Source: a virus
Lineage: Duplodnaviria > Heunggongvirae > Uroviricota > Caudoviricetes
Virus record (IMG/VR): IMGVR_UViG_2563366865_000004
Span: 1-38,371 of that record
Reading direction: 5' to 3' (one strand)
Length of the DNA stretch: 38,371 nt
The position numbers and the translations under genes are program-made. Positions 29,039-36,072 of the stretch are shown here, piece by piece (positions within the stretch are counted from its first letter, which is position 1; each line of letters begins with the position of its first letter). The notes under the pieces are model-generated. The model saw nothing but the letters and a program-made list of their open reading frames with translations, was not told the DNA's origin and did not search any database.

Positions 29039-29689
29039 ATGAAAACTCAATTGATGGGAGAGCGCATTCGCGCTCGGAGAAAAGAACTCAAGATCAGGCA
29101 GGCCGCACTTGGAAAGATGGTCGGCGTGTCTAATGTTGCCATATCTCAGTGGGAACGCTCTGAGACAGAGCCAAATGGAGAGAATCTTCTCGCCCTGGCT
29201 AATGCGTTGAAGTGTTCCCCTGACTATCTGATGAAAGGAGAGGAAAGTCTTTCAAACATTGCCTATCACAGTAGGCATGATCCAAGAGGGTCATACCCTC
29301 TGATTAGCTGGGTGAGCGCAGGATGCTGGATGGAAGCTGTAGAACCATATCATAAGCGTGCAATAGATAACTGGTACGATACAACCGTAGACTGTTCAGA
29401 CGATTCGTTTTGGTTGGACGTGAAGGGAGACTCAATGACGGCTCCGGCCGGTCTCAGTATCCCTGAAGGAATGATAATACTCGTCGATCCTGAAGTAGAG
29501 CCGCGTAACGGGAAACTGGTAGTTGCAAAGCTCGAAGGAGAAAACGAGGCAACTTTCAAGAAGTTAGTTATTGATGCAGGCAGGAAGTTTCTAAAACCAC
29601 TTAACCCACAATATCCGATGATCGAGATCAACGGGAACTGCAAAATCATCGGCGTAGTTGTCGATGCAAAACTAGCAAACCTTCCATAA
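29039..29689 (+). CDS. c2: C2 repressor (LexA-like autocleaving CI-family), 216 aa, P22-type
   Basis: MKTQLMGERIRARRKELKIRQAALGKMVGVSNVAISQWERSETEPNGENLLAL and C-terminal peptidase domain match P22 C2. Confidence 0.95.
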   Translation: MKTQLMGERIRARRKELKIRQAALGKMVGVSNVAISQWERSETEPNGENLLALANALKCSPDYLMKGEESLSNIAYHSRHDPRGSYPLISWVSAGCWMEAVEPYHKRAIDNWYDTTVDCSDDSFWLDVKGDSMTAPAGLSIPEGMIILVDPEVEPRNGKLVVAKLEGENEATFKKLVIDAGRKFLKPLNPQYPMIEINGNCKIIGVVVDAKLANLP

Positions 29690-29712
29690 GGGGGCATTCG
29701 CCCCTTTTTTTA
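29688..29712 (+). terminator. Rho-independent terminator after c2
   Basis: GGGGC-ATTC-GCCCC followed by TTTTTTTT. Confidence 0.85.
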
Positions 29713-29853
29713 TTTCCTTTAAAAATCAAAGCCAAACTTAAGTTACGAAAGAAAATTTAAGTTTTCTTCAAAAATACTCTTGACCATTAATTAAAGAGAT
29801 CTTAAATTTAAGCCATCAGCAGGACGCTGGTAGCCAAACGGAACAGATTGGCA

Positions 29854-29894
29854 GGCTCTTTAACATTGATGGAATTGTCCCGCCGAAATGCGGG
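29854..29894 (+). promoter_or_regulatory. nutL (boxA plus boxB), downstream of the presumed PL/OL region (about 29720-29800)
   Basis: GGCTCTTTAACA then the same boxB hairpin CCCGCCGAAATGCGGG as nutR. Confidence 0.6.
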
Positions 29895-30037
29895 AACCAA
29901 AGAGTAGTTGGCTTTGGGATTGGATGAATGCGCAGGCTGATGCGCGCAGGAGAGCTTCGGGAGAACAAGGTGCCTGTAAATAAGCCGGAGTTCAGCACCG
30001 GCCATCCAATCGCCAAAGTCAATCATCGGAGGTCAAC

Positions 30038-30343
30038 ATGGCAGTAGTCATTACATATCTGGCTGACGATAACGCCAGAAATCGCCGCAGAGCACGCAGA
30101 CAGGCTCAACGTGAACAGGCAATGCAAGAGCAGCGACTGGCGCGAAAAATTGCGCTAAAGCTCTCTGGTTGCGTCAGAGCAGATAAAGCAGCATCACTCG
30201 GAAGCCTTCGCTGCAAGAAGGCAGAAGAAGTCGAGCGTAAACAGAACCGTATTTACTACCGCAAGCCACGCAGTGAAATGGGTGTGACTTGCTCAGGCCG
30301 CCAGAAACAACGCGGAAAATCAATTCCAGCTTATTACGATTGA
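30038..30343 (+). CDS. N-like antiterminator (P22 gp24-like), 101 aa
   Basis: N-terminal arginine-rich motif NARNRRRARRQAQREQ; first gene after nutL. Confidence 0.75.
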   Translation: MAVVITYLADDNARNRRRARRQAQREQAMQEQRLARKIALKLSGCVRADKAASLGSLRCKKAEEVERKQNRIYYRKPRSEMGVTCSGRQKQRGKSIPAYYD

Positions 30344-30351
30344 GGTGAGCC

Positions 30352-30489
30352 ATGCTCAAGAAAGTCAAACGCCGACTTTACAAAGAAGGTAGATATTCAT
30401 GCCATTTGCCAAAATGCGACACAGCAAAATGGAGTGTCGATGATTGGTGTAACTGGATAGATAGATACGGAACTTGGTGGGATAAATAA
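30352..30489 (+). CDS. Small Cys/His/Trp-rich hypothetical protein, 45 aa (not in ORF track)
   Basis: ATG preceded by GAGGTGAG RBS; translation MLKKVKRRLYKEGRYSCHLPKCDTAKWSVDDWCNWIDRYGTWWDK. Confidence 0.4.
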   Translation: MLKKVKRRLYKEGRYSCHLPKCDTAKWSVDDWCNWIDRYGTWWDK

Positions 30490-30543
30490 CAGGTAACTTA
30501 AGCGGATTTATTTTCGCAGCAAACCACTTATTTGAGGTGAGAT

Positions 30544-30807
30544 ATGGACGAGAAAATTAAATCATTGAAGCCAGGAATTGTTATCAGAGACATAAGTGGT
30601 TATTACGATACAGAGACATATGATATTTTATATGTGCATGCAGATGGAAAATGTCAGTATTCGAACGACATTTTTAATAATAAAGGCGATGCCGAAATTG
30701 CTGCCACCACAGTTAATAAAGAGCTCGTAGCTAACGAGTCGTGGGATTATTTTATGCCATCATCCACTTCTATGAACTGGAAAGTGGTTTTGTACATTCC
30801 ATCATAA
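30544..30807 (+). CDS. AT-rich hypothetical moron protein, 87 aa
   Basis: Strong GAGGTGAG RBS, markedly lower GC than neighbours, followed by its own terminator. Confidence 0.55.
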   Translation: MDEKIKSLKPGIVIRDISGYYDTETYDILYVHADGKCQYSNDIFNNKGDAEIAATTVNKELVANESWDYFMPSSTSMNWKVVLYIPS

Positions 30808-30848
30808 TTGTAGCTGCCGTTCAAAAATGAAAGTAAATCTAACATCAC

Positions 30849-30872
30849 AGGCCGCATAGTCGGCCTTCTTTT
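30849..30872 (+). terminator. Rho-independent terminator after the 87-aa moron
   Basis: AGGCCG-CATAGT-CGGCCT followed by TCTTTT. Confidence 0.6.
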
Positions 30873-30991
30873 GGCATAAACAACAGAATAAACACTGCAC
30901 TGTGTATTCATTCCAACGAGTGAATACACTGAGCAATGTCGCTCGTAACTAAACAGGAGCCGACTTGTTCTGATTATTGGAAATCTTCTTT

Positions 30992-31018
30992 GCCCTCCAG
31001 TGTGAGGGCAATTTTTTT
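30992..31018 (+). terminator. Rho-independent terminator (tL-like) preceding the coiled-coil gene
   Basis: GCCCTC-CAGTGT-GAGGGC followed by AATTTTTTT. Confidence 0.65.
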
Positions 31019-31030
31019 GATGGAGGATAT

Positions 31031-31999
31031 ATGAGTGAAGTAACAGATTTAGTTGTTATTGAAAAAGCAAATGCAATGACTGTATTTCAGTCTGCCGACC
31101 AGATTGAAGAAATCCTTCAAAAGGTTGAACGTGAAGTTATGTCCTTTGTGCCTGATATCACAACGGCAAAGGGCAGAAAGGAGATCGCTTCTCTGGCGTA
31201 TAAAGTTGCGCAGACGAAAACATATCTCGATGGTCTTGGCAAAGACCTTGTTGCTGAACTGAAGGAAATTCCAAAGCTAATTGATGCTAACCGCAAGACA
31301 GTGCGTGATCGCCTTGATGAGCTGAAAGCCAAGGCACGCCAGCCTCTTACTGATTATGAGGAAGAACAGGCGCGGATTAAAGCCGAAGAAGAAGCTAAGG
31401 CAGCAGCTGAAGCTCTCGCAAAGCAAATTGAGTCTGACCATGAAATAGCTATTTTGATGGATCGCGAATTTGACCGCCAAAGAGAAGAGGCAAGACTCAA
31501 AGCGGAGCAGGAAAAGCGAGAGCATGAAGAACGCTTAAAAAGAGAAGCTGAAGAGAAAGCCAGAGCAGAAGCCGAAGCAAAGGCAAAAGCCGAAATTGAA
31601 GCAGCAGCAAGGCGAGAAGCAGAAGCTAAGGCCGCAGCGGAACGTGCAGAGCGTGAACGCATTGAAGCCGAGCAACGAGCACTGCGCGAAGCAAAAGAGG
31701 CAGCAGAACGAGCTGAAAGAGAAAAGCAGGCGGCAATTGAAGCAGAACGCAGAAAAGCACAGGAGGAGGCTGAACGAATCCGGCGCGAGGCTGAAGCAAA
31801 AGAGCAAGCCAGAATAGCAGAAGAAAAAAGAATCAAGGACGAAGAAGAGCGTAGAGCAAAGGATAAAGCTCACCGAAAAGAAGTAAATAACAAAATACTT
31901 GCTGACCTTATCAAGGTTGGCGCATCAGAAGATGTTGCTAAAAATATCATAACAGCCATCGTAAAAGGCGAAGTATTCGCAACAAAAATAACCTACTAA
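31031..31999 (+). CDS. Highly charged coiled-coil protein with Glu/Ala/Lys/Arg-rich central repeats, 322 aa
   Basis: GGAGG RBS before ATG at 31031; residues about 120-290 low-complexity EAEAKAKAE / REAEEK type. Confidence 0.6.
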   Translation: MSEVTDLVVIEKANAMTVFQSADQIEEILQKVEREVMSFVPDITTAKGRKEIASLAYKVAQTKTYLDGLGKDLVAELKEIPKLIDANRKTVRDRLDELKAKARQPLTDYEEEQARIKAEEEAKAAAEALAKQIESDHEIAILMDREFDRQREEARLKAEQEKREHEERLKREAEEKARAEAEAKAKAEIEAAARREAEAKAAAERAERERIEAEQRALREAKEAAERAEREKQAAIEAERRKAQEEAERIRREAEAKEQARIAEEKRIKDEEERRAKDKAHRKEVNNKILADLIKVGASEDVAKNIITAIVKGEVFATKITY

Positions 32000-35416: not shown

Positions 35417-36072
35417 GCGAAATTAATTACCAGGCACTACGTGAGGCGGCAGAACGTGCAACTCCAGCAATGGAACGCCTGTTAATGTTGCCAGTTGATG
35501 ATGATCTGATAAGCGAACAGGAACTTAAAGATAGCGGTGTTGATATTGATGCCCTCAACGCCTTCAAATTTCTGGCCGGACCAGAAACCGTGCTGGCGCT
35601 ACTGGATGAACGGGAAAGAAACCAGCAATACATAAAACGCCGCGATCAGGAGAACGAGGATATTGCGCTAACGGTAGGGAAACTGCTAATCGAAAACGGC
35701 CGGCTTGTTGCCGATACGCTACGCCACTTAGCTGATAACGAAATCGACTCTGATTATTTTGCTATCACCTCAACGAATGAGAACGGTACTGAAATTGATC
35801 ATGAGATGGCTATTACCGATTACGCACTGCAAGCTGCCGGAACTGTAGACGAATTGGTTGCGGCGCTGGAATCCGCAGAGAAGCGCATAGCAGAACTGGA
35901 AGCGCGGGAAATACTGCTCCCGGAACGTAGCAGTATGCTTCATCGAACAGATTTTCACGATGATTACCAAACGGTAATGGCATACAAAGTTTCTGAAGTC
36001 ATCGCTGCAATCCGCGCCGCTGGCATTCGCATCAAAGGAGACGCAGGAGAACAAAACGATGAAAAACCGTAA
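35413..36072 (+). CDS. Ead/Ea22-like early protein, 219 aa
   Basis: N-terminus [18 protein letters not shown] resembles Ea22-like prophage proteins as remembered. Confidence 0.6.
   Translation: MSEINYQALREAAERATPAMERLLMLPVDDDLISEQELKDSGVDIDALNAFKFLAGPETVLALLDERERNQQYIKRRDQENEDIALTVGKLLIENGRLVADTLRHLADNEIDSDYFAITSTNENGTEIDHEMAITDYALQAAGTVDELVAALESAEKRIAELEAREILLPERSSMLHRTDFHDDYQTVMAYKVSEVIAAIRAAGIRIKGDAGEQNDEKP

Follow-up and report, generated by a model that had tools for sequence, protein, structure and literature searches.

The window analysed here, a stretch of 38,371 nucleotides (positions 1 to 38,371 of IMG/VR virus record IMGVR_UViG_2563366865_000004), is a P22-like (Lederbergvirus-type) lambdoid prophage of E. 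coli, with phages CUS-3, HK620 and N7 as relatives. We focus on positions 30352-31018, a region found with 100% identity in the chromosomes of MS1657 and VTB96929v, two poultry strains. This segment is probably the N-proximal accessory part of the early-left (PL) operon, built of three independent modules joined by conserved linkers: a 45-residue open reading frame (ORF45), an 87-residue one (ORF87), and a hairpin followed by the small RNA (sRNA) PreS, which ends at terminator tL2a. Alignments indicate that ORF87 takes the exact place of the lambda orf28-ral pair. It alone would be a fresh candidate for countering host defences, the other parts of the segment being already known.

An earlier note on this DNA had described the segment as a cluster of morons, with candidate exclusion or anti-defence functions, lying between N and the recombination genes. 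All the features that it listed (reading frames, ribosome-binding sites (RBSs), hairpins, terminators and the N-like neighbour) are present where it placed them. Its placement also holds: the N-like gene is upstream, and cIII, kil and RecT are annotated downstream in the identical MS1657 prophage. Apart from the ORF87 candidate, the reach of the DUF5484 family and the missing annotation of PreS and ORF45, the locus is ordinary lambdoid mosaicism. Unless stated otherwise, all features lie on the + strand.

ORF87 and the orf28-ral slot

ORF87 (30544-30807) encodes an acidic protein with an isoelectric point (pI) of 4.6. The gene is AT-rich, as had been noted, with a GC content of 36.0% compared with 46.9% for the whole window, and it is preceded by the Shine-Dalgarno-type sequence GAGGTGA. 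To place it, we compared the window in a multiple alignment with lambda imm21, with phage N7 and with two E. coli prophages; lambda was also aligned directly.

On the 5' side, linker B (GCAGCAAACCACTTATTTGAGGTGA, 30510-30543) includes the RBS and is common to the sequence upstream of lambda orf28; its core, from GCAGCAAACC to the start codon, is invariant in the multiple alignment save for one base. The sequence GCAGCAAACCACTTATTTGAGGTGAgATATGGA found upstream of ORF87 likewise precedes orf28 in lambda imm21 and N7, and a near-identical copy of this linker lies at lambda 34381-34353. Orf28 itself is a reading frame of 28 codons overlapping the start of ral. On the 3' side, linker C (30849-30899) comprises a short GC hairpin with a weak U tract, scored as terminator-like (30849-30866), and then GGCATAAACAACAGAATAAACACTGCACT. 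The same linker is found 3' of ral in lambda and lambda imm21, and 3' of ORF35 in phage N7. The succession of block GGCATAAACAACAGAATAAACACTGCACT, hairpin and strong terminator aligns to lambda 34074-33920, the ral-ea10 interval.

Because the flanks are identical on both sides, in the multiple alignment as well as against lambda, we place ORF87 in the orf28-ral slot. As read from these alignments, it substitutes for the pair base for base and retains orf28's RBS and start context; the ral-type position proposed earlier is right, and more exact than was claimed. The two cassettes share their position in the PL operon, the upstream linker, the RBS and the ATGGA start context, and both are followed by the 3' linker, the hairpin and PreS/tL2a; their lengths are close (264 bp here, 288 bp in lambda). 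The cargoes, in contrast, are unrelated: ORF87 resembles neither orf28 nor Ral (PF11058, restriction alleviation), is a single gene instead of two overlapping ones, is acidic rather than near-neutral, and has a different predicted fold.

The RBS-containing linker TTGAGGTGA is itself over-represented, with four copies in the window against 0.28 expected: two flank ORF45 (30340-30348 and 30532-30540), and the others are at 10014-10022 and 35765-35773 on the - strand. Within the PL accessory array, this linker delimits the cassettes.

ORF87 belongs to phrog_33140, a family with no annotated function, its residues 1-87 covering profile positions 1-88 of 88 (E-value 1.2e-48). Members have 83-93 residues, are acidic without exception (pI 4.2-5.2) and share the motifs RDIS, GxC[RQ]YS[NP][DE][VI]F and WD[YF]. 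The ratio of nonsynonymous to synonymous polymorphism (pN/pS) has a median of 0.20 over 35 pairs of the 91-residue subfamily, indicating purifying selection. The AlphaFold2 model (predicted local distance difference test, pLDDT, 83.5; predicted template-modelling score, pTM, 0.73) is a globular alpha/beta fold of strands, two helices and a final strand (beta3-alpha2-beta). Given this selection, the confident model and the invariant motifs, ORF87 is a real gene.

The family is very rare. A word-indexed search of 5.8 billion proteins returned four clusters, and an exhaustive search of 1.84 billion representatives 15 matches, at least two of them low-complexity artefacts: P0015 (2986 residues, matched in 13 stretches) and P0020 are repeat proteins and were discarded as spurious. 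We found the family in 8 of the 5426 complete E. coli genomes, in a single one of 185,579 species representatives (a Kosakonia) and on 25 IMG/VR contigs. Carrier prophages come mostly from poultry and environmental E. coli. Homologues also occur in the virulent Klebsiella myophages KB57 and KpS8, the KB57 copy amid small hypothetical genes. In most relatives at 41-48% identity, the gene order cI, N, ORF87 family, coiled-coil gene is conserved where neighbours are detectable: a cI-like repressor and/or an N-like gene lies upstream, or a homologue of the coiled-coil gene downstream; a few loci show none of these.

Remote-homology searches and structure prediction yielded no relative of known function. 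ORF87 has no match in Pfam (E-value up to 1), NCBIfam or PADLOC, and only chance-level matches in the PDB, whether searched as a single sequence or as a profile. Foldseek against BFVD retrieved the KB57 homologue alone, with no fold relative of known function, and literature searches with its WP accessions and PHROG identifier found no functional data. Three candidate relationships were rejected with hhalign: a likeness of residues 24-58 to YegP/DUF1508 (UPF0339), seen by eye (probability 0.2%); homology of the family to lambda Ral (0.5%, and no PF11058 match); and homology to orf184 of phage mEp213 (0.1%). The earlier remark that neither protein resembles known ral- and sieB-type products stands: ORF87 and ORF45 are both unrelated to Ral, and neither has a hydrophobic segment of the kind seen in membrane exclusion proteins.

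Other cargoes occupy the same array in related phages. Between ...ACTGCACT and GTGTATTC..., the E. coli prophages SCU-124 (locus L005, 2582-3052) and E1 (L006, 2406-2876) carry a hypothetical gene of 156 residues. N7 has one of 121 residues (L001, 2364-2729) at the same insertion point, between the ORF87/ral cassette and the PreS hairpin. Neither cargo gene is in this window. The E. coli prophage SCZE5 (L016, 2408-3853) has a 93-residue paralogue of the ORF87 family directly after N, where the other linker is used; after it come an Nmad5-family putative nucleotide-modification gene, a gene annotated 'superinfection exclusion protein', and then PreS. Finally, mEp213 carries orf184 in this N-to-PreS array.

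Early-left transcription and the PreS module

Upstream of the segment, the cI-like repressor gene (29039-29689) ends in its own terminator (29688-29707). Right after it, and before the N-like gene, lies a PL-like promoter, TTGACC-17-TAAATT (29780-29808). A boxA-like GCTCTTTAAC and a boxB-like hairpin CCCGC-CGAAAT-GCGGG can be read at 29855-29895, a putative nutL on the model of the lambda and P22 nut sites. The N-like antiterminator gene (30038-30343, 101 residues) matches phrog_271, 'anti-termination protein N-like' (E-value 5e-36), has a weak Pfam N_peptide match and is labelled N in related phages.

According to a consensus scan, PL is the only sigma-70-like site on the + strand in 29600-31200, and no such site that could serve ORF45 or ORF87 as a promoter of its own was found between PL and 31200. 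No terminator separates N from ORF87, and none of the intrinsic type showed up anywhere from PL to 30849. ORF45 and ORF87 carry RBSs only, within linkers common to other cassettes, and the hairpin downstream of ORF87, with its weak U tract, sits in a 3' linker that unrelated cassettes also have.

ORF45 and ORF87 would consequently be transcribed from PL along with N, very early after infection or induction; with no intrinsic terminator detected ahead of 30849, all three may be made before N acts. Antitermination by N would then take transcription past 30849-30866 and tL2a into the recombination genes, and PreS would be released from the PL transcript at tL2a, via terminated or processed transcripts. 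Homologous recombination through the short conserved linkers would shuffle the modules.

These observations bear on the description of the segment as a moron cluster bracketed by terminators. Some moron-like traits are there: E1 and lambda imm21 lack ORF45, and ORF87, of low GC content (36% versus 47% for the window), is exchanged for orf28-ral. However, neither ORF45 nor ORF87 is a true (Hendrix-type) moron, since no sigma-70-type promoter precedes either; nor are they bracketed in the moron sense, given that no terminator stands between N and ORF87.

One or both genes could still be expressed in the lysogen from a promoter of their own and protect the host as sieB or esc does, through superinfection exclusion or abortive infection. 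The low GC content of ORF87 and the U-tract hairpin after it would fit, as would the exclusion genes in the arrays of relatives (the 'superinfection exclusion protein' of SCZE5, sieB in lambda). We nevertheless judge this improbable. Besides the missing promoter, both proteins are hydrophilic, their highest Kyte-Doolittle averages over 19 residues being -0.59 for ORF45 and 0.28 for ORF87; they contain no membrane-type segment, unlike the membrane proteins SieB and Esc. The 3' hairpin belongs to a linker common to unrelated cassettes and the second terminator to PreS, and lambda PreS, from the same region of the transcript, is lytic rather than lysogenic (bioRxiv 10.1101/2024.10.31.621285).

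The third module starts with an invariant 12-bp hairpin (30902-30929), detected by RNA folding and unchanged in the multiple alignment. The region 30800-31030 folds more stably than shuffled sequences (z = -4.9), and a terminator scan gave seven terminator-like sites against 1.8 +/- 1.4 in shuffles. The mapped 5' end of PreS follows this hairpin at once, and in related loci the two occur together. The hairpin could direct processing or serve as a boundary for recombination. Where relatives carry extra cassettes, these enter just ahead of it, between 30899 and 30902.

To judge by its alignment with lambda, 30931-31018 is the already described sRNA PreS (formerly LPR1), ending at tL2a. It is identical to lambda 34011-33925 at 86 of 87 positions, with one extra U, and its 5' end is set at 30931 by the published cloning primer GAGCAATGTCGCTCGTAACT. 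The seed region (about 30966-30979) is intact, and the block CCGACTTGTTCTGATTATTGGAAATC, hit by the published M1 mutation, is identical to that of lambda. The lone substitution, G to A, falls in the terminator stem, where it turns a U-G pair into U-A. The intrinsic terminator tL2a (30990-31018), which forms the PreS 3' end, has an 8-bp GC stem (hairpin 30990-31011) and a U7 tail, and aligns to the lambda ral-ea10 site. The inverted repeat and the second strong terminator reported earlier are thus real (the 12-bp hairpin, and 30990-31011 followed by T7), but they are not moron boundaries: the terminator belongs to PreS.

In lambda, PreS lies between ral and ea10, is Hfq-dependent, has its 3' end at tL2a and is processed from about 88 nt to about 68 nt. 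Its production belongs to lytic growth, with none in lysogens; it stimulates dnaN translation and helps lambda to replicate (bioRxiv 10.1101/2024.10.31.621285). The window copy has the same seed, terminator stem-loop, U tail and place downstream of the ral slot, but the gene that follows is a coiled-coil gene instead of ea10. Hfq binding, the 88- and 68-nt species and the effect on dnaN were shown in lambda; here PreS is recognised by its sequence and position. PreS is present in 2233 of the 5426 complete E. coli genomes (about 41%), in up to six copies each; none of the RefSeq E. coli genome rows listed annotates it. The RNA elements of 30902-31018, PreS included, are without a family in Rfam 15.

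In phage mEpX1, a 'putative cIII protein' (mEpX1_036; L002, 2696-2971) starts inside the PreS-aligned stretch and runs across the annotated terminator equivalent to tL2a (2711-2734); this cIII annotation may be a mis-call.

The next gene of the PL operon, directly after PreS, encodes a Glu/Lys/Ala-rich coiled-coil protein of 322 residues (31031-31999; phrog_1376, E-value 5e-110), sometimes annotated TolA. Its homologues, at 42-48% identity, are found downstream of distant ORF87 relatives, which makes it a conserved uncharacterised early-left gene.

ORF45 and the DUF5484 family

ORF45 (30352-30489) opens with an ATG 8 nt past the N stop codon, which its GAGGTGA Shine-Dalgarno sequence overlaps. 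The product is basic (pI 9.4), with three Cys, one His and five Trp residues. Rather than being an orphan, it falls in the DUF5484 family, that of T4 gp55.4 and Sf6 gene 36. Against PF17583 it scores 44.5 bits, the curated gathering cut-off being 27, with the match spanning its residues 5-42, and against phrog_1871 the E-value is 1e-21. T2 gp55.4 reaches 123 bits with PF17583, so that DUF5484 is essentially the T-even gp55.4 family.

Of the 1038 phage records that a tblastn search with ORF45 gave, most are from T4-like phages infecting Escherichia, Shigella and Klebsiella, at 40-51% identity; just 11 records, the lambdoid-type copies, exceeded 80%. ORF45 is about 93-96% identical to the lambdoid versions, among which is mEpX1_038 ('similar to Sf6 gene 36 protein'). 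Lambdoid and T-even proteins, about 50% identical overall, share the invariant core K-x-D-T-x-K-W-S-V-x-D-W (invariant residues K21, D23, T24, K26, W27, S28, V29 and D31). They differ in their setting, the T-even gene being in the T4 nrd-55 region and ORF45 in the PL operon, and in their cysteines: Cys17, Cys22 and Cys33 of the lambdoid branch are Leu, Gly and Ile in T-even proteins. The Cys-rich composition pointed out earlier is therefore accurate for ORF45 but specific to the lambdoid branch. Since the family as a whole lacks this trait, we consider a zinc site unlikely and dropped the zinc-binding reading of the Cys/His content.

The lambdoid form occurs in 145 of the 5426 E. coli genomes, and none of the eight RefSeq genome rows sampled among these carriers has an annotation over it. 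Its absence from E1 and lambda imm21, whose flanks otherwise match, shows that ORF45 is a separate module.

With a length of 45 residues, an AlphaFold2 model of moderate confidence (pLDDT 70) and no PGAP (NCBI) annotation in the rows sampled, ORF45 might be taken for a chance reading frame, or for a non-functional spacer translated to couple ribosomes from N. We regard this as extremely improbable in view of a score above the curated Pfam cut-off, a family spread over 1038 phage records, and a KxDTxKWSVxDW core left unchanged between lambdoid and T-even versions at about 50% identity. Such conservation indicates that ORF45 is a real gene.

Literature searches found no functional work on DUF5484 or gp55.4. 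The family reaches further, however, than T-even and lambdoid phages: in the N4-like (Schitoviridae) Cbunavirus phages EK8 (L014, 2501-2638) and phiA41 (L044, 301-402), the C-terminal 40 or so residues of DNA polymerase I are DUF5484-like (25.4 bits, E-value 1e-5, just under the Pfam threshold), with no stop codon separating them from the polymerase. This is a weak hint at a replication-linked partner for the ORF45 family, and so at a link of ORF45 to replication.

Possible roles of ORF87

The 'Ral' accessory region ranked second among phage accessory regions in a published survey, and orf184 from the N-to-PreS array was found to set off the P4 gop-beta-cII abortive-infection system; the 200 accessory genes screened there included neither ORF45 nor ORF87 (Silas et al., bioRxiv 10.1101/2023.04.06.535777). 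The slot of ORF87 is thus a documented counter-defence region, home to ral, and another cargo of its array meets a host defence. Like ORF87, orf184 encodes a small protein rich in acidic residues and is an alternative cargo of this array, but there is no homology between them, and gop-beta-cII cell death has been demonstrated for orf184 only.

By analogy with Ral, we tentatively favour an early role for ORF87 in the cytoplasm, where it would bind and inhibit a host defence directed against DNA, for example a restriction system, as a stand-in for Ral. The slot, the predicted early expression, the small size, the acidity and the rare, patchy distribution are what point to this role. It is more doubtful whether the whole family (phrog_33140) forms a new anti-restriction or anti-defence family, swapped for Ral in lambdoid phages and present in virulent Klebsiella myophages too; if so, the target would be a defence other than, or additional to, type I restriction.

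Several considerations weigh against this reading of the segment. Occupying the same slot is not proof of having the same function, and the cargoes of the array are functionally heterogeneous, including Ral, membrane proteins, a Nun-like factor and an Nmad5-family protein. As for early expression, the promoter scan picks up only consensus-like sigma-70 sites, and Rho-dependent termination may occur between N and ORF87.

ORF87 could also be an early host-takeover or regulatory factor unrelated to defence, binding a host protein and so influencing the choice between lysis and lysogeny or the host's replication, recombination or transcription. An operon that includes cIII, kil and recombination genes would be a natural home for a small acidic early protein; the neighbouring PreS acts on host dnaN, and the KB57 homologue sits among small hypothetical genes of a virulent myophage. 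We find this rather unlikely: the scarcity of the family in E. coli and across species representatives fits arms-race accessory genes better, and ORF87 substitutes specifically for an anti-restriction cassette.

The segment is under-annotated, PreS (in about 41% of complete E. coli genomes) and ORF45 being without RefSeq annotation in the rows checked. Together, the conserved linkers, the hairpin and PreS make an easily searchable "landing pad", whose cargoes are concentrated candidates for counter-defence genes and defence triggers. ORF87 appears to be one more cargo of the documented Ral accessory region, representing a rare candidate anti-defence family without known fold relative. If it indeed stands in for Ral, the repertoire of anti-restriction and anti-defence proteins would gain a structurally new inhibitor, and the defence faced by the few prophages that carry ORF87 would be identified.

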